A stretch of 64,000 nucleotides of DNA, taken from positions 1 to 64,000 of the forward strand of contig NZ_QJVJ01000012.1 of NCBI RefSeq assembly GCF_003217775.1, written 5' to 3'. This stretch comes from Paenibacillus flagellatus. Its GTDB lineage: Bacteria; Bacillota; Bacilli; Paenibacillales; NBRC-103111. Below the pieces are notes generated by a model that searched no databases, had not been told where the DNA came from, and saw only the letters and a program-made list of their open reading frames with translations. Every line of letters starts with the position of its first letter. Position 1 is the stretch's first letter. The translations under genes were made by a program, and so were the position numbers. This document shows, piece by piece, positions 1-11,763 of this stretch.

Positions 1-147
1 GGGGGGAGTTATCCCCATGTGGATATTGGTTTCAAAATTTCGCTGGTCCCACTCCCACTTATTCACAGTTGTTGATCCGCTCCTGGATGATCGCCACCGC
101 ATTCTTATGCGCTTTCGAAATTCAGGTATAAAGCATATTACGATATA

Positions 148-663
148 TTGATTCAAGGCTACGATAGACAGGATGAAATGATAAGGAAAATTATATCTGG
201 TATCAATAAATTTTTCAATCCTGATGATCATGAGGATGATAAGCTCAAAATCTGGACGACACATAAATACGAGCTTCGCACTTATCCCAGGGTAGCTGTT
301 ACAAGTAAATATGCGTATTCGAATCAAATTGAACTGCTTGTTCCAAGGCTGCCTGCCCATTTGAAGGAAATGGAATACGTTCCCGACCATTTTCTCTTCC
401 GCGTATATAAGTCGAAAGAAAAGGCCTTTGTTGAGCTAAGAATTGACCTAAACCTTTATCGAGTTTTAACGTTAGTTCAAATAGGATATCCATCACAGCT
501 AGTACCTGAACAGCATCAATTTAAGCTGCTTCGTTTTATGAACGAGCTTTCCTCGTTAGAATCGACAAGCAGAGCTAATGAGTTTTTGATCAGGGATATG
601 GATAATCGTTCATTATATCGAGTAAAGGTCAATAATGCACAATATGTATCAAAGCGGAGGTAA
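148..663 (+). CDS. Hypothetical protein, first gene of low-GC island operon (TTG at 148; alternative ATG at 178 with AGGA upstream)
   Basis: 171-aa ORF, low G+C, no recognisable motifs. Stop TAA 661-663 overlaps the RBS GGAGGT of the next gene, which starts 5 nt later. Confidence 0.45.
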   Translation: MIQGYDRQDEMIRKIISGINKFFNPDDHEDDKLKIWTTHKYELRTYPRVAVTSKYAYSNQIELLVPRLPAHLKEMEYVPDHFLFRVYKSKEKAFVELRIDLNLYRVLTLVQIGYPSQLVPEQHQFKLLRFMNELSSLESTSRANEFLIRDMDNRSLYRVKVNNAQYVSKRR

Positions 664-667
664 GAGA

Positions 668-2143
668 ATGGCAAACCGATTGAAGGAATATGGGAATCAG
701 GTATTAAATGATTATATCCAATATAGACCTACTTCATCATCTATTAAACCGGTTCATGTTGCTAATGGCTTATTTAGACTTGTATCTGGAGAAAGCTATA
801 CGGTGGATGCTTTAAATGAATGGATAATTCGCTGGAGGCAAGGTAAGGAGGTAAATCCAGCATCAGAAATAAGGAATAAATACAACGATGCTTTCGATGA
901 GAATGGCTTTGACGATGATGAGATAAATATGCTTCGGTTTTACTTAAATATCATTTTTAATGCCGATAATGCTGCATTCCCAAGTGCAAATAATACTGTA
1001 TTGACAATCAGCAGTAAAACCCAAGTTCGAGGGTCTGTTGCGCTAGAAGCTGGCTTACACAGCTTCTTATACCGCTTACTTACTACAGAGGTAAATGGTC
1101 AGTTTTCACCATGTCTAGGACTAATCAAAGAATATTTAGAAAATGAGAACGATGATCTTAGTAGAATCGCAGCGCCTCTGACCAAGTTTGCAAAAAAGAA
1201 AACTCACGATCAAGCTACCAACTCAAATTTACCTTTGCTGAGTGGGGTGGAGTTTAGATTAAGGGCTTCATTTGATAAGCTAGCTCAAAATGAAATGTCT
1301 TCGGGAAACAAGCTCTTGACCTTGGAAAGGATCATTCTGTTTGGATGTTTTGCTATTATAAATCATTTATCTTCAAAGGTGCTAGACTTATCCTCAGAGT
1401 ATTCTATTGATGATAGGGTTCCCATTCTTTTGGATGCAGATGGTGAGCTTGATTCAGTGAAGTATGCAAGCGAAGAGACCTTGGTGGTAGCTAAGCTGCT
1501 TATTGAACAGTTCTTCGAGAAGGGTTTAGAGGAAATTCTATCACCTGAGAAATATGATACATATACCCATGACGAAATGCTTGCACGAATTAATGATTTG
1601 CGTTTAGAGGAAAGCACGAGAAGAACCTCTAACCGTGAGGAGGAGGAGGAAAAGCGGAAAAGCTACCGAGCACTGTACCTAGGTTACTTTGAGCAACTCC
1701 GAGACCCCTTTCAAGCTTTTATTAAGGCTTCACGCTTTAAGCTCTTTGCCGACGAATATGATACTGATCCTTCAAGCTTCATTTCAACCTTTGGGGGAAG
1801 AATTGCTCTGCTCGCGCCGAGGGCACAGGGTGGAAAGCGAAAGAGATATTCTCCTGATCCACTTATTTTGGAAATCTTACTATTGACTATTCTAGAACCG
1901 GGACGTGGCTTGACTTTAAGCCAACTTGGTCATGAGCTATGGGATAGATACGGCATCATTTTTGGTGCTAACCCTGAGACCGATTTTGAAAAGCTAACTA
2001 CCTGGAAGGTGACCCCAAATACGCCTGGTGATCTGGCTGGAGATTTGGCGAAAAATGCGGAGAAAATCGCTGATACATTAATCTCAATGGGATACGGGAA
2101 GCGCTATGCGGATGGTGTAACTGTTATTTCCTTAAGGAGGTAA
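668..2143 (+). CDS. Hypothetical protein, second gene of island operon (491 aa; no Walker motif seen)
   Basis: ATG at 668 preceded by GGAGGT with 7-nt spacing. Stop TAA 2141-2143 lies within AGGAGGTAAAAAATG of the next gene, indicating translational coupling. The ORF track's 635 start is an upstream extension that overlaps ORF1. Confidence 0.55.
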   Translation: MANRLKEYGNQVLNDYIQYRPTSSSIKPVHVANGLFRLVSGESYTVDALNEWIIRWRQGKEVNPASEIRNKYNDAFDENGFDDDEINMLRFYLNIIFNADNAAFPSANNTVLTISSKTQVRGSVALEAGLHSFLYRLLTTEVNGQFSPCLGLIKEYLENENDDLSRIAAPLTKFAKKKTHDQATNSNLPLLSGVEFRLRASFDKLAQNEMSSGNKLLTLERIILFGCFAIINHLSSKVLDLSSEYSIDDRVPILLDADGELDSVKYASEETLVVAKLLIEQFFEKGLEEILSPEKYDTYTHDEMLARINDLRLEESTRRTSNREEEEEKRKSYRALYLGYFEQLRDPFQAFIKASRFKLFADEYDTDPSSFISTFGGRIALLAPRAQGGKRKRYSPDPLILEILLLTILEPGRGLTLSQLGHELWDRYGIIFGANPETDFEKLTTWKVTPNTPGDLAGDLAKNAEKIADTLISMGYGKRYADGVTVISLRR

Positions 2144-2146
2144 AAA

Positions 2147-5100
2147 ATGTCTTCTGAAATTGTACTTTCTGATATACTTGCTGCTATTGTAAGCAAAAGA
2201 GTATTTAATGAGAGCTATGGTATTCTCCTGAAGGATTTACCAAAATACTCGTATAGTAAATTTATAAATATGCTTGAACTTCGAGTTAGAGAACAAGACC
2301 TAGCAATGCCTAAAGTTTTTTTCGTTGGCTTCACAGACGTTGAGCTTGATGAGCTTCGACTTGAGCTGAGTGGTCAGCTTACCTACCTTTCCCTGTACTA
2401 TTCTGTTGAGGAAGCTGAGGATTTTAGAAATGACGGAGACGTTAATAGCACACGAATTGTAATTGTAAAAAGGGCAGTTCCAAAGCTCTCCTCCCTTCGT
2501 TGGTATGAGCAAATAACCGCAGAAGAGATTTATAAAGAGCTATGTGTCAATGCTGAAAAGCAGCTTGGGGGAATTAATGAGTCGTTAAGGAATATGTGGA
2601 AGTCTCTAAATTCAAAGAGAATAATGGATAGAATTTCACTTGAACGACTGATTGACTATTATCAGCACCTTACGTTAAATGATGAAGATATTCCAAGAGA
2701 TTCTGTAGAGCAACTATTTAGATTAGGTTTGTTAATTGATGATAGTGTATTTGTGAAGAGTAATATAGATTCAATCAGACAGAGGCTAATTGAAAACTCT
2801 AGGATAGTTTCACGAATAAGCAATTTAAATAAAGAGGACCGAAAGGCAATTCAATCAAATCCTGAATCAGATAAATTCCATTCTACTCGTTCAAATATTC
2901 TTCGATACTATAGTACAAGAGATGTTTCTGTTCTCGGAAAAATGAAATACAGCGAGGTACAGGAACTTCTTTCTAAGGTGAAGAATGAGAAGACAAACAA
3001 GAAAAAGCCAGTTGACGTTGATGATGATATAGAAGACTCTGATACTGATAGCATCTCGGGAAAATCAAGAAAAAAGTCAGATTCGCCGGAATCAACCGCG
3101 GTTGATTTAATAATTGAGCATGACACTGATAAGGTAAAAGGACTGCTTGATGAGATTGAGCTAAAATATACTGAGTGGGAAAAAGGTAAAGCAAGCAAAG
3201 TCAATGTTGAGAGTGAAAATGAGAGCACTCGTATTGAATTTATTCCTGAGATCCACAACCTTATTCAAACCTTTGTTGGTGAGAATTCCTTTGGAGGCGT
3301 AATAAAAGCCAATGTTAAAAACCCAATAGATGCATTTCGTTCATTGGAGCAATTTCGAGTTAGAGTGTTTGATAGAGAATATATTGATGGAATTAAGGAA
3401 ATTATCGCTCTATTCGAGGATGAATACGCTGAGGTCAAGGGGTTACTTGAAGTCTTTAATGAACTGTTATCTATCAGAAGCAGCTTAGTAAGCGCGGCTC
3501 ACCGTTTAGCGGATTGTCCAATGCTTAAGATTGTTGAATCCGATGAAATTCTAAAAAGCTGTTCTGAATATGTAGACTTGTACGGGAGAGTTCTTAAGCT
3601 TATTAAGCAGCATTATGGTTTATTAAGCTCCTTCAGCCCCAAAGGCTCGAAGCAATTAATAGCTAGCATTAATTCTTTAGACATGATCTACATCATTGGT
3701 GAGGAAAGCGTTCACGCAACTAGCACACCATTATTTCCATTATATCTTTGGAAATACGTCGAGCTTACGGTCAGATTAAGAGAATCCTCTTCCAGTTTGA
3801 GCGAGATAGATAAAGATTTCCTTGTTCGGGCATCAGGGGAAATTCCAAATCCATTACCTACAGTTTTCGTCAGTAGCTACATCTCAAACAAAGGCGACAG
3901 AGTAATTCCAGAGGTAAGCCTGCTTGGTAAGCTGCCGATTTATTCAAGCGAGCAGCAGGTCAACCAAATGCTTGACGGGCTTCAGGTAATCGAAAAATCT
4001 CTTACGAAGCTCATTAAGGTATATCCTCACAGTTCGTTCGGACTGAGAGTTGCCTTTGTGAATCCTCCAAGCGTTAAGCATGTTTTTGACTTGGTTAAAG
4101 GTATGCTTAGAGCAAAGGATATAAGCCTTCAGGGGGCTCATATACATATATTTAAAACTAAAGAGACTCCTGAAAATTGGTCAAGCTTTGATGATGTGGA
4201 TGATACCATATACAGTAAGTTTGCCCTCTCAAATGATCCAAACTTTTCAATTAAGATCGACACAATTGTATTAGGTTTCGATGCACTAGTTGAATTAGTG
4301 AAAAAGAATCACTTCCATACAGTTGTATTGTTTGATCCATGTGGAAAGTCCGTTTCAAATATTAGAAGAAATCCACTACTTAAAATTCATCCTTTGTGCA
4401 TTCCGAAGGTATTTGAGTATGACCCTATCGCGGATAAAGTAGAGATACTACCTGCTTCAGATGGAAATATATTCTCTGATCATCATGATTTAATTGGTCG
4501 TCTAAACGACAAGCCTCAGGGGTGGCATCACACAATTGTTTTAGAGCTAGAGACAAGTAAACAGGAATTTAATAGGCTGCTTGAAACTGTGCCATGGCTA
4601 ATAATAGCTGATGCCAATTTAAAGAATCTTGAATTGAGCGTTATAGGCTCAGAGAAGTGTATCTTTTATCAGTCAAAGTCCTTTCGTGACGTAGGAATTT
4701 ATTCAAATGACTGGGCAAAGCTTACAAAGGGGATGGACTATACAATTCGATCCATTGGAAATTATGATCCAAGGGAAGAGTGTGTGGGTAAGGTATTAAG
4801 AACAATTCAAGGCTTGAATGAAAGGGGCGTTTTGAGTCTTGCATCTTCAAAGGTAGATAGAACCTTTAATATTAATCATACTAAAGGTGCCCTTGGTACG
4901 GCTATCTCTGCAATTTGGTCAAAGCAAAATTCAAAGAATTTTATTATAGTAAGCTTAGATACAGAGCTTGCACAGAGTTGGCTAGATGAACGTGAAGAAG
5001 GGACTTTCTCTGATCTAATTGGAATCACTTTTGATGAGCATCAAGCAGTAATAGATATCATTGAGGTAAAAACATACGATGGTGCTTATCAAGTTGACCA

Positions 5101-6811
5101 AAATGAGATCACAGGAAAGGCTGTTGAACAGGTTAATTCAGTCAGAAGCATCATTCACGAGATTTTTAATGAGAGGGACAAGATTACAAGCACATCAAGA
5201 AGAGAGCTACTGAGGTTTCAGGCTTTTAGGTCTTTTTATCGGCTTCCATTATCAAAGTCTGAAAAAAAGGAGTGGACATACCAATTAAATCGGCTGTTCG
5301 CAGGGGAGATACCTGTCACAATAAACTCATCAATTCATCATGTCAGGTTTAGCGAGCAAGGAACTTCCACGAGCAGGCAGTTGGACTCAGATTATAAAAT
5401 TAACCTGCTGGAGATACGTGATGATTTTATTAATAAGGTTCTAGTAAATTGTTGTGAGGTCAGCTTCGAAAGTAAGTTCGATTCCTTAAGCTTTAAGGGA
5501 AGCAGAAATCCAACTCAACCTTCAACAGATGCTTTCTCAAATTCTAACATTTCATCTGATGAGAGTACGACCCAGCGGGATGTTGAAAGAGTAATCGAGA
5601 AAATCACTGTTGTATCAGATGCAGCAATAGAAAGAAGTTACAAGGCTGATGGAATCAATATTATTGATGATAAAATTGAAACTGCAGAGGCATTTCAAAA
5701 ACTAGCTGGAGATACAACGGCGGAGTTAAAGGACCTAATTATTAAAAATGCGGGTACATTATTTAGAGCAATGCGTGATTATTCAATCGATGTTTCGTCC
5801 GTTGATCCAGAGTTGGCTTTAGTAGCATCAAGATTTATTAGATTCCGAGTAAGACTAAGGGCTGGCGAAACATTGCAAAAGGTTTTGAGGTATCGTACGG
5901 ATATTACTAGAGAAATAGAAGCAGAATCTGAAATTCTTGTTGGGAACGAACGTGGTACTCAATTTGTTTTTGTTGATGTTCCTCGTAAGAGCAGCGATTC
6001 AATTAGGCTTTTAGATTATCTTAATATGCTGCCGCGCGATACGCCGGTTGGAAATCTAAATGTGGTCATTGGACAAGATCCAAGTGGAGAATTTAAGCTG
6101 CTTAACATTGCCCAGGCTCCTCACATGCTAACTGCTGGCTCTACTGGCTCGGGAAAGACAATTTTCCTTTATAGCTTGATTGTGAGCTTAATTTCTCAGT
6201 ATAGCCACGAACAACTTGAACTTGTAATTATTGACCCAAAGCAAACTGATTTTATATTCTTTGACGGTCTGCCGCATCTTCGGAATAAAGAGGTAATACT
6301 GGATGCGGAGAAGGCAGTCGAAATACTTACTGATTTGACTGAGAATGAATTGGAAAGAAGAACTGAACTACTTCGTCAATCGCGTAGTAGAGATTTGTTT
6401 AGCTACAACCAGAAGAATCCTGAAGCACCATTAAAGCCGATCGTTGTAATAATTGATGAATATGCTGACCTTGTTCAGGTAGCAGACCTTGAAGGTCGAA
6501 AAAAGGATTTTGAGAGACAAATGATACGACTGGCTCAACGCTCTAGAAATGTAGGAATACATTTAGTAGTTGCTACCCAGAGACCAAGCGCTGATATTGT
6601 CACTTCGAATCTAAAAACAAACATCCCTTGCAGGATTTCTTTCAGATTACCAGCGCACCAGGATTCAATGACTATTCTGGATTCGCCGGGTGCTGAGGAT
6701 TTGTTAGGTAAAGGCGATATGCTATTCTCACTTAATGGTGATATGACTAGACTTCAGGGACTGTACATCAGTGAAGAGGAATTAGAGAGCTTTTTAGAGA
6801 AGTATATTTAA
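2147..6811 (+). CDS. Large (1,554-aa) cytoplasmic protein with C-terminal FtsK/SpoIIIE-type DNA-translocase ATPase domain; N-terminal ~1,250 aa of unknown function
   Basis: C-terminal motifs: Walker A GSTGSGKT (6137-6160), Walker B VVIIDEYADL (~6443-6472), LVVATQRPSADIVTSNLKTNIPCRISF (6572-), and GAEDLLGKGDMLF, which closely mirrors FtsK LLGxGDMLY. No hydrophobic TM segments at the N-terminus. RBS GGAGG 4 nt upstream. Confidence 0.75.
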   Translation: MSSEIVLSDILAAIVSKRVFNESYGILLKDLPKYSYSKFINMLELRVREQDLAMPKVFFVGFTDVELDELRLELSGQLTYLSLYYSVEEAEDFRNDGDVNSTRIVIVKRAVPKLSSLRWYEQITAEEIYKELCVNAEKQLGGINESLRNMWKSLNSKRIMDRISLERLIDYYQHLTLNDEDIPRDSVEQLFRLGLLIDDSVFVKSNIDSIRQRLIENSRIVSRISNLNKEDRKAIQSNPESDKFHSTRSNILRYYSTRDVSVLGKMKYSEVQELLSKVKNEKTNKKKPVDVDDDIEDSDTDSISGKSRKKSDSPESTAVDLIIEHDTDKVKGLLDEIELKYTEWEKGKASKVNVESENESTRIEFIPEIHNLIQTFVGENSFGGVIKANVKNPIDAFRSLEQFRVRVFDREYIDGIKEIIALFEDEYAEVKGLLEVFNELLSIRSSLVSAAHRLADCPMLKIVESDEILKSCSEYVDLYGRVLKLIKQHYGLLSSFSPKGSKQLIASINSLDMIYIIGEESVHATSTPLFPLYLWKYVELTVRLRESSSSLSEIDKDFLVRASGEIPNPLPTVFVSSYISNKGDRVIPEVSLLGKLPIYSSEQQVNQMLDGLQVIEKSLTKLIKVYPHSSFGLRVAFVNPPSVKHVFDLVKGMLRAKDISLQGAHIHIFKTKETPENWSSFDDVDDTIYSKFALSNDPNFSIKIDTIVLGFDALVELVKKNHFHTVVLFDPCGKSVSNIRRNPLLKIHPLCIPKVFEYDPIADKVEILPASDGNIFSDHHDLIGRLNDKPQGWHHTIVLELETSKQEFNRLLETVPWLIIADANLKNLELSVIGSEKCIFYQSKSFRDVGIYSNDWAKLTKGMDYTIRSIGNYDPREECVGKVLRTIQGLNERGVLSLASSKVDRTFNINHTKGALGTAISAIWSKQNSKNFIIVSLDTELAQSWLDEREEGTFSDLIGITFDEHQAVIDIIEVKTYDGAYQVDQNEITGKAVEQVNSVRSIIHEIFNERDKITSTSRRELLRFQAFRSFYRLPLSKSEKKEWTYQLNRLFAGEIPVTINSSIHHVRFSEQGTSTSRQLDSDYKINLLEIRDDFINKVLVNCCEVSFESKFDSLSFKGSRNPTQPSTDAFSNSNISSDESTTQRDVERVIEKITVVSDAAIERSYKADGINIIDDKIETAEAFQKLAGDTTAELKDLIIKNAGTLFRAMRDYSIDVSSVDPELALVASRFIRFRVRLRAGETLQKVLRYRTDITREIEAESEILVGNERGTQFVFVDVPRKSSDSIRLLDYLNMLPRDTPVGNLNVVIGQDPSGEFKLLNIAQAPHMLTAGSTGSGKTIFLYSLIVSLISQYSHEQLELVIIDPKQTDFIFFDGLPHLRNKEVILDAEKAVEILTDLTENELERRTELLRQSRSRDLFSYNQKNPEAPLKPIVVIIDEYADLVQVADLEGRKKDFERQMIRLAQRSRNVGIHLVVATQRPSADIVTSNLKTNIPCRISFRLPAHQDSMTILDSPGAEDLLGKGDMLFSLNGDMTRLQGLYISEEELESFLEKYI

Positions 6812-6816
6812 TTATA

Positions 6817-6853
6817 GTACACCGTCAGAAACGAACCTGACGGTGTACTTCTT
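6817..6853 (+). terminator. Rho-independent terminator after the FtsK-domain gene
   Basis: Perfect 12-bp stem GTACACCGTCAG / CTGACGGTGTAC with an 8-nt loop, followed by TTCTT. Confidence 0.7.
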
Positions 6854-6880
6854 AGATGGTAGAAAGAGAGTGTGTGTGGT

Positions 6881-7570
6881 GTGTTTGTAAATGAGACAAT
6901 TAAGGGAATCTTTATTAAAGAAAGTAAAAATAGATTTCTATGTACAGTACTGATTAATGGGCTGGTTAATGAGTGCTACGTACCTAGTTCTTCACGCATT
7001 GAGAATTATTTGGAATTGCACAATCGTGAGGTACTATTAACTAAAAATCAAAGTAAAAAAAAACGAACTGAATATTCATTGTTCGCGGTGAAGTATTACA
7101 ATAAGTATATATTAATTAATTTGAATATGATAAATTCAATCGTTCAATTTATGATTCAGGAAAATAAATTAAAAACATTGAGTGGTTTTAGTATCAAACG
7201 AGAACAATTAATTAACAGATACAAAGCCGATTTATTGTTAGAAAATGAAGAAGGAATTCGGATTGTCATTGAAGTCAAAGGGATAATATCTTCTAAACAA
7301 GAGGTCATGTTTCCAAGTATTTATTCTGAAAGAGCAATTTTACAATTATCGAGGATAAAACAATTGCTTCAGGCAGGTGAAAAAGTTTCATATATTATTG
7401 TCTCATTAAGTCCTACAGTTAGAAGAATTATTCTTGATGATACTTACAGGGAATATTATCATAGTTTCAAAGAGTGTCTTGAATTAGGTATGCAAGTTCA
7501 GGCTTTTTCAGTCAATTTTCATGATGGGGTCATTACATTTGGTAAACGAATAAGGATTATTCCTTTATAG
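6881..7570 (+). CDS. sfsA: SfsA-family protein (OB-fold plus PD-(D/E)xK-like nuclease domain; sugar fermentation stimulation protein A homologue)
   Basis: Colinear similarity to E. coli SfsA from memory: RFL...V near the N-terminus, a KKKR basic patch, LSGFS, RIVIEVKGI (SfsA CYIEVKSV) and a C-terminal GxxVxAF segment. GTG at 6881 is preferred (RBS AGAAAGAGAG 10 nt upstream); GTG at 6872 is also possible. Confidence 0.7.
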   Translation: MFVNETIKGIFIKESKNRFLCTVLINGLVNECYVPSSSRIENYLELHNREVLLTKNQSKKKRTEYSLFAVKYYNKYILINLNMINSIVQFMIQENKLKTLSGFSIKREQLINRYKADLLLENEEGIRIVIEVKGIISSKQEVMFPSIYSERAILQLSRIKQLLQAGEKVSYIIVSLSPTVRRIILDDTYREYYHSFKECLELGMQVQAFSVNFHDGVITFGKRIRIIPL

Positions 7571-7580
7571 TGTGTAAAAG

Positions 7581-7611
7581 AAAGAGGCAGAGGCAGGTAA
7601 CCCAGCCTCTT
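7581..7611. terminator. Hairpin between convergent genes (likely terminator for the minus-strand small ORF)
   Basis: AAAGAGGC...GCCTCTTT stem. On the minus-strand RNA it is followed by CUUUUAC. Confidence 0.4.
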
Positions 7612-7821
7612 TCAGGAGGTCCATTCGGATTCATCAATCTCGATATGAATCCATCCAGTTGGGATGATGTGGAGTTTGTTATCAGCGGTCTTCAAACGGT
7701 GAGTCCCAGAGTCACGAACAATAAGTTCAGTTACATTTAAAAGAACTACTTTCCCACCATTTGGAAAAAAATATGTTCTTGAAGATTCCTTAAGTTGTAT
7801 AGGCTTACCGACCTCAGACAT
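7612..7821 (-). CDS. Small hypothetical protein (69 aa), low G+C
   Basis: ATG at 7821 preceded by a GGGGGG RBS at ~7-nt spacing (GTG at 7839 also in frame). No recognisable motif. Confidence 0.35.
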   Translation of the reverse strand: MSEVGKPIQLKESSRTYFFPNGGKVVLLNVTELIVRDSGTHRLKTADNKLHIIPTGWIHIEIDESEWTS

Positions 7822-7910
7822 AATTGTACCCCCCGACACGTCTATATACTACATTATACATCAAAAAGCAATTGCAGTATATATTTCAAAAACGATCAGA
7901 GGTGTAAGGC

Positions 7911-8894
7911 ATGCTGGCATTTTTTAGTTCAAATCATAGACCCCTTTATAAAGAATCAATTTATCGTGCACTGTCCTATCCTAATGGACATGTAATTCAA
8001 CTAAGATATAGGAAGCAATGGTTACATCAAGATGTTGTCAATAAACTTGAGTATTATAAAAAGAATAAAACCGATTGTATCCTTTTCTTTTATGAAAAAA
8101 ACAATCAGAGTTTTCATTCTATTAGAAAGGCGAAGATAATCGATTATAAAATTAGTCCTGTAACAAAGCAATACCATTTCTATATTGAATTTGAGAAATT
8201 TATTGATATGGAAATCGACATATCTACGGCTCAAGGTAAAACACCACTTGATGGCATACACTTTTCAGACTTGGATTTAAAAAACGGAGCAAAGCATGAA
8301 TGGTTTGAGAGAATAGATAATTTGAAAGCGGAGTTTCCAGATCTCGCTTTTTTTAATATTAATGGCTTTTATAATAAAAGTGGAAAAAAGCGTATTAAAA
8401 GCAAGTTTAAAAACTATGAATCAATCTATGAATTGCGAGATAATAAAGATTACAAAATCGAATTGTCGCTTTATAACACATCTTCAAATGATGAGATTTC
8501 TGAGTATACTCGAGATGTAACTGACCCAAACTTAATATTTGTAAACGAACCTTCAAAAATAATAGTTTCTGGTTCTTTGGATGACAGAGAGATAACATTG
8601 AAGACAAATACATTAGAGTCTTCGTCGCTATATTCTTATGTTACGTACAATGCTACTTCTAAGGACGGAAGTGTACAATATTCGGTTCCATTACAGTTTA
8701 AAATAAAACGAAATAGAACTAAGTCTTTCTATTTTGGGATATTATCTGCGAAAGCTGCGAGTTGTGTTGGAGTAGTAAATTACTTCACCAAGTTCAATTA
8801 CATATTGCCTTGCCATCGTTGGATTATTTGGATAGCGATATTTTTGTTTTTTCTTTCAGTAGCTGAGTTATTCCGTGTTTTCAATAAGAAATAA
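7911..8894 (+). CDS. Hypothetical protein with C-terminal transmembrane anchor (327 aa), low G+C
   Basis: RBS GAGGTG 8 nt upstream of the ATG. C-terminal hydrophobic helix WIIWIAIFLFFLSVAELF. No known motif. Confidence 0.5.
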   Translation: MLAFFSSNHRPLYKESIYRALSYPNGHVIQLRYRKQWLHQDVVNKLEYYKKNKTDCILFFYEKNNQSFHSIRKAKIIDYKISPVTKQYHFYIEFEKFIDMEIDISTAQGKTPLDGIHFSDLDLKNGAKHEWFERIDNLKAEFPDLAFFNINGFYNKSGKKRIKSKFKNYESIYELRDNKDYKIELSLYNTSSNDEISEYTRDVTDPNLIFVNEPSKIIVSGSLDDREITLKTNTLESSSLYSYVTYNATSKDGSVQYSVPLQFKIKRNRTKSFYFGILSAKAASCVGVVNYFTKFNYILPCHRWIIWIAIFLFFLSVAELFRVFNKK

Positions 8895-9231
8895 CCCGAA
8901 AATAAGTTTATTGATACGGTAACAATCATGTAACAAAATGTCGCGAATTTAGCGATAATTGGAAATAATACAAAACGCCGAAAACCCAGTCAGGACAGCA
9001 TGCTACGGTTCGCCGCATTGACGTCCTTACATCAAATTAGGGTATCTTCGCCTAGAGGCATTATTTTAACTCTATTAAATAGGCGAAAAACTAGCCTGGC
9101 ATTATATGAGTCATTGCCTTAAAAACTGCCGCAAAAATTCGTAATAAAGTATGATAAATTAAGAGAATAGTGCGTCACAGAACATTAAGAGCCTTGATTT
9201 TACGTGATTTTGAGGCACTGAGGGGCTTTTT

Positions 9232-9456
9232 CTAACCCTCCACCAAATCCACAATCTCCCGAATATCGCTGATGCCTAGAGCATCGGCGATTTTTTCAAT
9301 ATGCGAGAAGTTGATGTTCGCGCGCTTGCCGTTGGCTAACTCGCTTAAGGCGGCATGGCGGACGTCGGACAAGCGGGAGAGCTCCCTTAAGGAAATACCT
9401 CGTTGTTTCAACAACTCCGGAATTTTCACAACCACTTTCTTGGACATTTGGATCAC
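9232..9456 (-). CDS. XRE-family (Cro/cI-type) helix-turn-helix transcriptional regulator
   Basis: 74-aa protein QRGISLRELSRLSDVRHAALSELANGKR, a typical HTH_XRE. Sits at the island boundary, divergent from the next ORF. Confidence 0.8.
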   Translation of the reverse strand: MIQMSKKVVVKIPELLKQRGISLRELSRLSDVRHAALSELANGKRANINFSHIEKIADALGISDIREIVDLVEG

Positions 9457-9567
9457 CGCTCCACTTTGGAATTGACTATACGCGATAACGTACCATATAA
9501 TTGAAGAAGGGCTGGTACGTATATGCGTAACATCATTTATTCAGTATTCCGCGATTGGAGGAGGCCT

Positions 9568-9855
9568 ATGCATGAATGGATCAATGAAACGATCGTAGAG
9601 AGGTTCCGCCTCTTATCCGGCAACGCCGAACAACTAGAAGAGGTTAAGGTACTACGAGCCCGTACTAGGGAAGCCGAACAACAACTCCTCGCAAACATGC
9701 CGCATGAAAGAGAGCATCTAGACAACCTGCTCAACCTGCTCACAGAACTCGACACCCTACATAACAAGCACTTCTATGCCAAAGGACTACAGGACGGCAT
9801 CCAACTTCTTATCTTTTTCCTGTTTGACGACGGCATTTTGGAGTCCAATAAATAA
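9568..9855 (+). CDS. Hypothetical small protein (95 aa) divergent from the XRE regulator
   Basis: ATG at 9568 preceded by GGAGGAGG. The ORF track's 9523 start is an upstream extension. No known motif. Confidence 0.4.
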   Translation: MHEWINETIVERFRLLSGNAEQLEEVKVLRARTREAEQQLLANMPHEREHLDNLLNLLTELDTLHNKHFYAKGLQDGIQLLIFFLFDDGILESNK

Positions 9856-9892
9856 TGGGTACCTACCATTCCCCGAAAAGAAAGGAGCTTGC

Positions 9893-10180
9893 ATGATCCT
9901 TACCCAAGACATCCCTCTCTGGTGGGTCATCGCCATCGGCGTCCCGGTCATCCTCCTCAACCTGTACTTGGAATTCCGCCACCGCAAAAAGGAGGAGGCG
10001 AAAGCATCGGAAGACGGCGAAAAAGCCAGCGGGTCACGGAGCACAAACGCCCCGATCCAAGACTACGGCTACTGGCGCACGATCACGAAGCCTCGCAAGC
10101 CGGATGCCCCCGCGCCAGATAACCGTTCGGCGATCCCGAACGAGGAAGGAGATCCCCCCAGCAAAACCAGCCGGTCCTGA
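9893..10180 (+). CDS. Small membrane protein (single TM helix, Pro/charged-rich tail)
   Basis: ATG at 9893 with RBS AAAGGAG 6 nt upstream. Sequence MILTQDIPLWWVIAIGVPVILLNLYLEF is a TM helix. Confidence 0.4.
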   Translation: MILTQDIPLWWVIAIGVPVILLNLYLEFRHRKKEEAKASEDGEKASGSRSTNAPIQDYGYWRTITKPRKPDAPAPDNRSAIPNEEGDPPSKTSRS

Positions 10181-10335
10181 CCCGAACTCTTACGTAGCCC
10201 CGCTCAGCCATAGCCGTCCCAATCGGGCGGCTTTCCATTTTCCCCAAACATTTTCCACGTCGTAATACTTTCGCCATGTTCGCGGCGCCTCGGATGAGCG
10301 AATATAGGAGGCAGAGATCAACGAAGCGGAGGCTT

Positions 10336-11763
10336 ATGAGGAACATGGAACGTCAAGCAATCGAGCATGGACACAATCATTACGAGATGGAGCTGCCGCA
10401 CGGCCGGCTGCATCTGTACGCGAGCCCGGACGTGATGCGATCGTTCGAGGCGAAGGTATACGAGATGGCGGACAACAATTTGCGCATTCCGCGCAATGTG
10501 TATATGAGCTATACCCCGGACGCGCATGTGGGTGTCGGGACGTGCATCGGGACGACGGCGGTGTGGCGGATGAAGGACGGCTTCGTGTCGCCGTCGATCG
10601 TCGGGGTGGACATCGGGTGCGGGATGCGGGTGCATCTGACGCCGCTGCATCGTCGTGACATACAGGACCGGGCGGTGCGCCGGGCGCTGATCGAGGCGAT
10701 CGAGCGGTACGTGCCGACGAACGAGCGGACGAATACGCACTATGCGGATATCGACATCATGGACGTCGTGCGGCACGGCTTGAAGGGATTGCCGGAGCGG
10801 TACGTCCCGGATGAACGGTGGCTGACGCACGTGGAGGAGTCGACGTTCAAGTTCGACCATGCGTACCTGGAGCATCTGCCGCCGAAGATTCGCAAGTATG
10901 CTCACGGGCAGCTCGGGACGCTGGGAGGCGGGAATCATTTCATCGAGCTGCAGTATGTGGAGCTGGCGGAGGAGCAGCGGGAGCTGGCGGAACGGTGGGG
11001 CTTGTTCGACGGTCAGGTCGTTGTCATGATCCATTCCGGCTCCCGGGCGTGGGGCGCGATGCTCGGTCAGGCGTACACGAAGGAGCTGCGCGAGGCGATG
11101 TACAGCTGGGGCGTGGAGAACCCGGACCGCAACCTGATCTACGCCCCGATCGCGAGCCGGGAAGGGCAGTCGTACTTGAACCTGATGTACTCGGCGCTGA
11201 ACTTCGCGGTGAGCAACCGCCATATGATCGCCTACGGGGTGCGGGAAGCGTTCCGCGACGTGTTCGGGGCGGAGATGGAGCTGCCGGTGCTCTACGACTT
11301 GATGCACAATTATGCGCTCAAGGAGTTCCACCGCAACGAGCCGATGCTCGTCCATCGCAAAGGCGCGACGCGGGCGCTGCCGCCGGGACACTTCCTGAAC
11401 GCGGCGGCGTACAAGGAGACGGGGCACCCGGCCTTGATCCCCGGCTCGATGGGAACATCGTCGTATATCATGGTCGGTCGGCCGGAGGGGATCAAAAACT
11501 TTTACTCGATCTGCCATGGTGCCGGCCGGGCTCGCTCCCGCAAGGCGACGAAGGAGCTCGTGACGGTCGATCAGTTCGAACGGTCGCTGCGGGTCGGGAC
11601 GGACGACGAGGTTCTGGTCAACCACCGGTCGCTCCAGTCGATTCTCGACGAATGCCCGCAAGCGTACAAGGACGTCGACCAAATCATCGACAGCGTCGTC
11701 GGCGCGTCGCTTGCCGATGTGGTGGCGACATGCAAGCCGATGGCCGCCATCAAGGGCGTATAA
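10336..11763 (+). CDS. rtcB: RNA-splicing ligase RtcB (3'-phosphate/5'-OH RNA ligase)
   Basis: GVDIGCGMR, the GGGNHFIELQ signature, HSGSRAWG and ICHGAGR. Start ATG at 10336 (GGAGG upstream); the 10276 start in the ORF track is probably an extension. Confidence 0.9.
   Translation: MRNMERQAIEHGHNHYEMELPHGRLHLYASPDVMRSFEAKVYEMADNNLRIPRNVYMSYTPDAHVGVGTCIGTTAVWRMKDGFVSPSIVGVDIGCGMRVHLTPLHRRDIQDRAVRRALIEAIERYVPTNERTNTHYADIDIMDVVRHGLKGLPERYVPDERWLTHVEESTFKFDHAYLEHLPPKIRKYAHGQLGTLGGGNHFIELQYVELAEEQRELAERWGLFDGQVVVMIHSGSRAWGAMLGQAYTKELREAMYSWGVENPDRNLIYAPIASREGQSYLNLMYSALNFAVSNRHMIAYGVREAFRDVFGAEMELPVLYDLMHNYALKEFHRNEPMLVHRKGATRALPPGHFLNAAAYKETGHPALIPGSMGTSSYIMVGRPEGIKNFYSICHGAGRARSRKATKELVTVDQFERSLRVGTDDEVLVNHRSLQSILDECPQAYKDVDQIIDSVVGASLADVVATCKPMAAIKGV

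Follow-up and report, generated by a model that had tools for sequence, protein, structure and literature searches.

We examined an SfsA-like nuclease gene and the putative defense cassette to which it belongs in a 64,000-nucleotide (nt) stretch of Paenibacillus flagellatus DNA (contig NZ_QJVJ01000012.1, positions 1 to 64,000), hereafter called the window, meaning the whole stretch that was analyzed. The gene lies in an AT-rich island at the left end of the window. Its GC content is 29.4%, that of positions 1 to 10200 is 38.8%, and that of the remainder of the window is 61.8%. In complete form, the cassette has the order DruA (DUF4338), F (a P-loop protein like SspF/DndF), G (like SspG/DndG), H, and, in last place, SfsA. 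From its sequence, H appears to combine an FtsK/HerA DNA translocase with a restriction-endonuclease domain and with modules for DNA binding. The corresponding features of the window are listed below.

1 to 124, no strand assigned: sequence unrelated to gene F, with a breakpoint at the 5' side of the cassette.
125 to 663, forward strand: remnant of gene F, SspF/DndF-like, comprising the last ~180 of ~516 codons; the part with the Walker A P-loop is gone.
635 to 2143, forward strand: gene G, SspG/DndG-like, 502 amino acids (aa), intact, with a PADLOC SspG match at 9e-7.
2147 to 6811, forward strand: gene H, 1554 aa, with a Pfam FtsK_SpoIIIE match at 1.6e-37.
5012 to 5014, 5063 to 5065, and 5069 to 5071, forward strand: D956, E973, and K975, the restriction-endonuclease motif of H.
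6137 to 6157 and 6455 to 6460, forward strand: Walker A and Walker B of the C-terminal FtsK/HerA translocase of H.
6816 to 6849, forward strand: perfect 13-bp hairpin between H and SfsA, free energy (dG) -25.1 kcal/mol, z -4.4 against shuffles, followed by UUCUU.
6881 to 7570, forward strand: SfsA-like nuclease gene, 229 aa, with an alternative GTG start at 6872. Its oligonucleotide/oligosaccharide-binding (OB) domain spans residues ~1 to 80, and its PD-(D/E)xK domain spans residues ~85 to 215.
7229 to 7231, 7271 to 7273, and 7277 to 7279, forward strand: D117, E131, and K133 of the SfsA-like protein.

The forward-strand open reading frame (ORF) of the SfsA-like gene extends from 6872 to 7570, and translation from the GTG at 6881 gives the 229-aa product. 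This start agrees with the NCBI model of the P. flagellatus protein (P0001, 100% identity), which is named "DNA/RNA nuclease SfsA," and with the starts of homologues. Both Pfam domains of the family were found above their cut-offs, the OB domain SfsA_N (PF17746) at 8.3e-11 with 42.3 bits (cut-off, 25) and the restriction-endonuclease domain SfsA (PF03749) at 4.5e-14 with 52.9 bits (cut-off, 22.8). D117, E131, and K133 were invariant in an alignment of 40 members of the clade, and the predicted nuclease site therefore looks intact. A profile built from these 40 members matched the solved SfsA structures 4DA2 (Pyrococcus furiosus; 4.4e-13) and 4DAP (Escherichia coli; 2.2e-12), with the D...ExK motif aligned. 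An AlphaFold model of the window protein (predicted local distance difference test [pLDDT], 94.8; predicted template modeling score [pTM], 0.90) has a beta-barrel at residues 6 to 78. In Foldseek, the model matched 4DAV, the P. furiosus SfsA-DNA structure (E, 7.7e-21; template modeling score [TM], 0.88), and 4DAP (E, 5.5e-20; TM, 0.89), and superposition on the two gave root mean square deviations of 2.0 to 2.2 over ~230 columns. These results confirm that the gene encodes a genuine SfsA-fold protein with an OB and a PD-(D/E)xK domain. The initial annotation, made from the letters alone, had described a colinear similarity to SfsA, an AT-rich island setting, and a position behind a giant translocase gene, and all three descriptions hold.

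Compared with canonical SfsA (E. coli b0146, 4DAP; P. furiosus, 4DA2/4DAV), the window protein has the same two-domain fold, the same D...ExK motif, and a similar length, but it is only 17 to 21% identical to the solved proteins. Against the NCBIfam equivalog TIGR00230 (cut-off, 126.45 bits), it scored 78.1 bits and five further clade members scored 59 to 88 bits, all below the cut-off, whereas E. coli SfsA scored 352.8 bits. In a neighbor-joining tree, the entire clade stood on a long branch apart from E. coli SfsA. A phmmer search of 1.84 billion cluster representatives returned 778 matches at an E value of ≤1e-3 and 226 at ≤1e-10, and with so few matches the clade is small and separate. Its settings also differ from that of E. 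coli sfsA (b0146), which sits between dksA and thpR. No such housekeeping setting was found in any locus with readable flanks, and the neighbors across the 80 + 80 + 6 loci examined were defense or mobile-element genes. Clade SfsA genes further differ from canonical SfsA in that they recombine between cassettes, as described below. A plasmid or phage origin of the clade was rejected, as tblastn searches of plasmids and phages gave only distant canonical SfsA at 21 to 29% identity.

The linkage of SfsA to H was examined in 80 genomic loci found by an SfsA-anchored search (one genome per species), with neighbors identified by tblastn. H ended directly upstream of SfsA in 62 of these loci, and the full colinear DruA-F-G-H set was present in 52. 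The hosts included Paenibacillus, Neobacillus, Halobacillus, many Clostridia, Negativicutes, Fusobacterium, and Treponema. The cassette was also present in 4 of 5 evaluable loci on IMG/VR contigs. A second scan, of metagenomes, was anchored on 10 closer G sequences and was thus independent of SfsA. Among its 80 loci, DruA lay upstream in 69 of 69 evaluable cases, and SfsA lay downstream of H in 48 of 54. At 10% divergence, the H proteins of the 88 complete cassettes formed 53 clusters, and at 30% they still formed 26, indicating that the linkage is not an artifact of near-duplicates, and SfsA was kept in cassettes whose H proteins are just 23 to 25% identical.

An intact relative, in Paenibacillus curdlanolyticus YK9 (locus L081; AEDD01000006.1, ~228.7 to 249.5 kb, with the genes at 205 to 10723 of the locus), encodes DruA (689 aa), F (516 aa), G (491 aa), and H (1548 aa), followed by SfsA, and its G and H are 89 to 91% identical to those of the window. 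PADLOC matches in this locus were 5e-149 for DruA, 7e-19 for SspF, 2e-12 for DndF, 4e-8 for SspG, and 1e-72 for SspH, the last covering only the C-terminal 350 aa of H. Its F protein carries the motif GNPGDGKT. Across cassettes, the DruA and F genes are 15 to 30 nt apart. The FtsK-SfsA pair is retained even in reduced architectures, namely, a 1472-aa DruA::FtsK fusion followed by SfsA (L072, 5532 to 9950), DruA and a shortened H followed by SfsA (L046, 4302 to 9977), and a 1694-aa protein running from a helix-turn-helix (HTH) to an FtsK domain followed by SfsA (L061, 4880 to 9964). A 396-aa FtsK-domain protein with SfsA was found in a further locus (L042, 8760 to 9950).

The pairing of SfsA with the translocase had been judged unusual. 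It is instead the rule for the clade, and the suggestion that SfsA-like genes might recur beside homologues of the 1,554-aa protein was borne out in genomic and metagenomic loci alike. The initial annotation had missed two aspects of the upstream system, namely, that it is a five-gene set with DruA in front and that it is truncated at its 5' end in the window.

The truncation was located by aligning the window DNA to F from L081 and L002. Homology to F begins at ~nt 125; nt 1 to 124 are unrelated, contain stops in the F frame at 73 to 75 and 88 to 90, and have no second copy in the window or in the loci. This abrupt start indicates that DruA and ~345 codons of F, including those for the P-loop, are apparently missing or displaced in the window. 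The F remnant is 95 to 96% identical to the F C-terminus of L001 and L002 and, as a fragment, still gave a PADLOC DndF match at 2e-6. The G protein is 91 to 92% identical to those of L001 and L002. The PADLOC SspH match to the window H (1.6e-70) covers residues 1198 to 1550, i.e., the C-terminal ~350 aa. D956, E973, K975, and the Walker motifs were invariant in 30 of 30 H proteins, the endonuclease domain being defined by its sequence motif only. That SfsA substitutes for a nuclease lost from H was considered and rejected because the D...ExK motif is invariant in H. As H has a nuclease motif of its own, SfsA would be the second nuclease of the cassette. The ORFs of G, H, and SfsA retain their full length in the window. 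However, deletion of sspF, sspG, or sspH abolished SspFGH protection (PMC8092258), and since each gene is required there, G-H-SfsA in the window may be a remnant of recent origin, no longer a full working system.

At the junction between the last two genes, a spacer of 69 nt separates the H stop from the start of SfsA in the window. Across cassette loci, the median spacer was 11 nt, and overlaps of -1, -4, and -8 were frequent. The overlapping or nearly touching frames point to transcription of H and SfsA in one message in most lineages, possibly with coupled translation. The proposal that SfsA stands behind its own terminator was only partly sustained. The perfect 13-bp hairpin at 6816 to 6849 is strong, but its UUCUU tail is short, a consensus terminator scan did not call it, and no promoter-like site was found in the scan between it and the start codon at 6881. 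Comparable strong hairpins, some with better T-tracts, were present in L001, L002, L009, L027, and L013/L088. The first four are Bacilli genomes, and L013 is a Candidatus Frackibacter genome outside the Bacilli. The hairpin is thus confined to a few branches, mostly Bacilli. Most other loci have H-SfsA gaps of 0 to 20 nt or overlaps, and the hairpin was therefore rejected as a general feature of the cassette. The predicted structure at 6816 to 6849 is probably a leaky terminator or an RNA-stabilizing element. In the Paenibacillus branch, it would probably cut read-through, so that less SfsA nuclease than H motor would be made.

The genes of the cassette differ in how closely they evolve together. 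Pairwise distances among DruA, F, G, and H were correlated at r = 0.98 to 0.99. However, 6 of the 53 H clusters held more than one SfsA type. L113 and L114 shared ~100% DNA identity across H and up to ~75 nt into SfsA; farther into SfsA the identity fell to 56 to 75%, and past the gene the sequences were unrelated. The same identity break was found in L001/L002 and L116/L122. The breakpoints fell within the first ~100 nt of SfsA, which is the most conserved N-terminal coding stretch, with ~100% identity upstream and 55 to 75% downstream. In cassettes without SfsA, other genes may follow H; these encode a T5orf172/MUG113 protein in L127 (10403 to 11269) and a Fic protein with a VbhA-like segment in L130 (10723 to 11859). 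From these sequence relationships, SfsA is probably an accessory that can be exchanged and not a fixed subunit of the core.

Members of the same SfsA clade were also found behind other defense systems. SfsA followed DrmA-DrmB-DrmC (DISARM) in L004 and L008, PglZ-BrxA-DrmD (BREX-like) in L005, MTaX1-PbeA-PbeC (Pbe-like) in L014, L031, L032, L050, and L077, DruC-DruD-DruE-DruA (Druantia type I) in L003 and L006, and DNA methylases in L012, L021, and L168. These contexts were interspersed in the SfsA tree. The 707-aa protein P0144 joins the OB and nuclease domains of SfsA to an Eco57I/N6_Mtase domain and a TaqI_C specificity domain in one chain, which would make it a type IIG-like enzyme whose nuclease is SfsA. 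Another protein, P0193, has an HTH_3 domain ahead of SfsA. In L004 (10001 to 12164 for the two genes together), the stop of the SfsA gene behind DrmA-B-C overlaps the start of a gene for a 492-aa Mrr_cat restriction-endonuclease protein, giving two nucleases in a row. Canonical Druantia type I has DruA as its first gene. In L003/L084 (Paenibacillus brevis) and L006 (Bacillus sp. T33-2), the order is DruC-DruD-DruE-DruA-SfsA, with DruA at the 3' side beside SfsA.

The flanks of 38 nonredundant cassettes were surveyed with Pfam (141 ORFs of ≥180 aa within 6 kb). Upstream flanks came from metagenomic loci only and made up 44 of the 141 ORFs, so that upstream coverage was thinner. The commonest families were integrases, recombinases, resolvases, ParA, Fic, and relaxases, none of them in more than 5 ORFs. 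Among the 141 ORFs, of which only 44 were upstream, no phosphorothioation family was among the top 25 families, and DNA methylases occurred twice. A conserved modification partner was rejected, as none was present in these flanks.

Two further features adjoin the SfsA gene of the window on its 3' side.

7580 to 7613, no strand assigned: hairpin between the convergent SfsA gene and 69-aa ORF, dG -16 kcal/mol, z -2.5, possibly a two-way terminator.
7615 to 7821, reverse strand: 69-aa ORF, convergent to SfsA.

The 69-aa ORF had no family match. Copies 68 to 69% identical adjoin SfsA in L001 (P. curdlanolyticus) and L027 (Halobacillus). DNA identity between the window and L001 is ~85% up to ~nt 7850, just past this ORF, and then falls. 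The ORF is at most a possible member of the system. A 327-aa ORF on the forward strand (7911 to 8894) encodes a protein with a hydrophobic C-terminus and no family match. A full-length copy with 27% identity directly follows SfsA in L027, and the N-terminal 60 to 86 aa resemble ORFs directly after SfsA in L010, L011, and L039. An inhibitor or immunity gene beside SfsA was considered and rejected, as the 69-aa ORF is common only to L001 and L027 and the 327-aa ORF only to four loci. Farther downstream, a 110-aa ORF (9523 to 9855), close to where the low-GC island ends on the right, matched DUF6809 below threshold (22.9 versus 27 bits). The ORF at 10276 to 11763, whose translation looks RtcB-like by eye, sits where GC returns to ~62%.

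We favor, with a probability of about 0.62, the reading that this SfsA clade has specialized as an accessory nuclease of anti-phage and anti-plasmid systems and finishes the DNA damage begun by the A-F-G-H proteins. The A-F-G-H complex would recognize foreign DNA, and H would track along it and nick or cut it. Using its OB domain, SfsA would then bind the nicked, gapped, or single-stranded DNA exposed in this way, and it would turn the damage into irreversible breakage or degradation. SfsA would act as a second, replaceable effector. The initial annotation had proposed either an accessory nuclease or effector of the system or an independent cargo gene, a framing that the evidence supports, with the exchangeable accessory favored.

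Several observations weigh against this finishing role. The cassette of the window itself is truncated at its 5' side, and the intact nuclease motif of H means that a second nuclease is not obviously needed. SfsA distances correlate with those of each core gene at ~0.71 (Mantel P = 0.001), and near-identical H genes carry SfsA genes that are 29 to 45% different. PADLOC-DB 2.0 has no model matching the SfsA-like protein. Other adverse observations favor an alternative, namely, that SfsA is an autonomous defense or restriction nuclease, either a one-gene module or the nuclease half of a small restriction-modification pair, that works without A-F-G-H and lodges at the 3' ends of many defense operons, these being hot spots of recombination in defense islands. 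SfsA is absent from 6 of 54 evaluable cassettes (11%), and the hairpin could cut the window SfsA off from H transcription. The clade adjoins six or more unrelated systems, sometimes at a distance of 130 to 390 nt from non-FGH systems, a placement that also fits an autonomous nuclease gene. The P0144 fusion to a methylase and specificity module is likewise expected of such a gene, as is the swapping of SfsA separately from the core genes, at breakpoints that lie in the 5' end of SfsA. However, most A-F-G-H cassettes leave no room for a promoter between the H stop and SfsA. In addition, SfsA is kept across cassettes with highly divergent H proteins (23 to 25% identity) and remains paired with the FtsK-domain protein in loci where F, G, or DruA has been lost or fused. 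An unregulated, nonspecific nuclease without a modification partner would also be toxic, and no conserved methylase is present in the flanks. We therefore consider an autonomous nuclease unlikely, if a serious candidate.

SfsA might alternatively be a backup suicide effector that is held inactive by A-F-G-H, is released when a phage inhibits or overwhelms the main restriction activity, and degrades host and phage nucleic acid. Variable backup co-effectors have been proposed for DndFGH (PMC10853773), and SfsA is variable and exchangeable, as would be expected of an arms-race component; T5orf172 (L127) and Fic (L130) genes can take its place. However, no conserved cognate inhibitor or antitoxin lies beside SfsA, and sequence data cannot separate such an effector from a direct finishing nuclease. 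We regard the suicide role as improbable. The idea that the window gene is an ordinary housekeeping SfsA orthologue that lies beside a defense system in P. flagellatus by chance can draw on the NCBI label and on the presence of the SfsA fold. It is already contradicted by the sub-cut-off TIGR00230 scores of the window protein and the other clade members tested, the 17 to 21% identity to solved SfsA, the 29% GC of the gene within a 62% GC genome, a setting unlike dksA-sfsA-thpR, and the recurrence of defense-gene linkage across dozens of independent lineages, and it is hardly credible. The long branch and the non-housekeeping settings of the clade likewise do not resemble those of a typical housekeeping orthologue.

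Beyond the finishing role, a broader interpretation is possible, which we advance only tentatively. DruA-F-G-H-SfsA might constitute a distinct, modification-independent defense system, found mainly in Bacillota and in scattered genomes of other phyla, in which a component of Druantia is combined with a motor-nuclease like SspFGH. The SfsA clade might in turn supply a plug-in nuclease of general use that six or more different helicase/translocase systems recruit in trans (the FGH-like cassette, Druantia I, DISARM, BREX-like, Pbe-like, and methylase pairs). If true, this would give an SfsA-family protein its first physiological role. The structure of SfsA was solved and its nuclease site predicted years ago, yet to our knowledge the protein still lacks a clear role in the cell. 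As the clade is confined to defense settings, it offers a direct route to testing what SfsA-type nucleases cut. Cassettes that are nearly identical have exchanged their SfsA alleles independently, a clean case of how effectors are traded in defense islands. The conserved second nuclease also suggests how FGH damage could become lethal to the invader in Bacillota. As the five-gene architecture shows, DruA is not specific to Druantia. Current tools would break the cassette up into incomplete Druantia and Ssp systems plus a "housekeeping" sfsA, because PADLOC lacks an SfsA model and NCBI names the product "DNA/RNA nuclease SfsA."

The five-gene architecture and the defense-dedicated, swappable SfsA clade appear to be undescribed, and their component pieces are familiar. 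The literature searched, which lacks most subscription journals, contained no description of SfsA linked to FGH- or Druantia-type genes, and an SfsA gene is not mentioned in the text or supplement of the DndFGH survey by Rakesh, Aravind, and Krishnan (2024, PMC10853773). An SfsA gene has been noted near restriction genes in Dehalococcoides in a study that describes nonspecific DNA binding by E. coli SfsA and predicts it to be a nuclease (PMC1189080), and a nuclease associated with prokaryotic Argonaute is distantly of the SfsA type (PMC2743648).

With Druantia type I (DruA-E), of which DruA is otherwise the hallmark, intact relatives of the window cassette share a strong DruA match (5e-149), encoded by their first gene, and L003 and L006 carry the same SfsA clade after DruC-DruD-DruE-DruA. 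However, the A-F-G-H-SfsA loci have neither the DruE helicase nor DruB-D, matches to DruC, DruD, and DruE being found only in L003 and L006, and the motor of the cassette is an FtsK-type translocase. In P. flagellatus, DruA would lie outside the window, upstream of the truncation. DUF4338, which is GNAT-like, has been found fused to some DndF proteins (PMC10853773). The cassette likewise joins DruA to a DndF-type F, here as adjacent genes whose distances correlate at r = 0.98. In that survey, DUF4338 is an occasional add-on, whereas DruA was present in all 69 evaluable cassette loci.

In layout, the core of the cassette resembles SspFGH (Vibrio anguillarum FF-93; PMC8092258) and DndFGH/DptFGH, which likewise consist of three colinear genes of similar sizes. 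In intact relatives of the window cassette, F has a Walker A P-loop, G has a weak SspG match, and H (~1550 aa) combines a nuclease motif with a C-terminal FtsK/HerA translocase, as in these systems. However, the hidden Markov model matches are weak or limited to the C-terminus of H. For DptF, the cassette F scored 26 bits against an NCBIfam cut-off of 50, and G and H had no Dpt matches. SspFGH protection needs an intact F, of which the window retains only the last ~180 codons. The published three-gene SspFGH/DndFGH systems have no DruA in front and no SfsA behind, whereas the cassette has both. No phosphorothioate-modification family recurs in the cassette flanks, where upstream coverage is thin. 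Standalone DndFGH without modification genes has been described as common, and DndFGH as often decoupled from modification; the absence of a modification partner from the surveyed flanks agrees with the argument of Rakesh, Aravind, and Krishnan that DndFGH is usually standalone (PMC10853773).

The activities described for these systems bear on the place of a second nuclease. The DndFGH complex has nickase and translocase activities (PMC11662687). SspFGH, which lacks SfsA, caused damage that was positive by terminal deoxynucleotidyl transferase dUTP nick end labeling (TUNEL), with no visible degradation of phage DNA (PMC8092258). The variable backup co-effectors proposed for DndFGH are HEPN, NERD, kinase, and GNAT domains fused to DndF (Rakesh et al., PMC10853773). 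Pseudomonas aeruginosa NACHT proteins with an SfsA-type nuclease domain are reported to be anti-phage (Van den Berg et al. 2024, as summarized in PMC13276650), so that an SfsA-type nuclease likewise serves there as a defense effector. The NACHT protein, however, is a fusion of the nuclease to a signal transduction ATPase with numerous domains (STAND) NTPase in a single polypeptide, whereas the SfsA of the cassette is free-standing and accompanies multigene motor systems.

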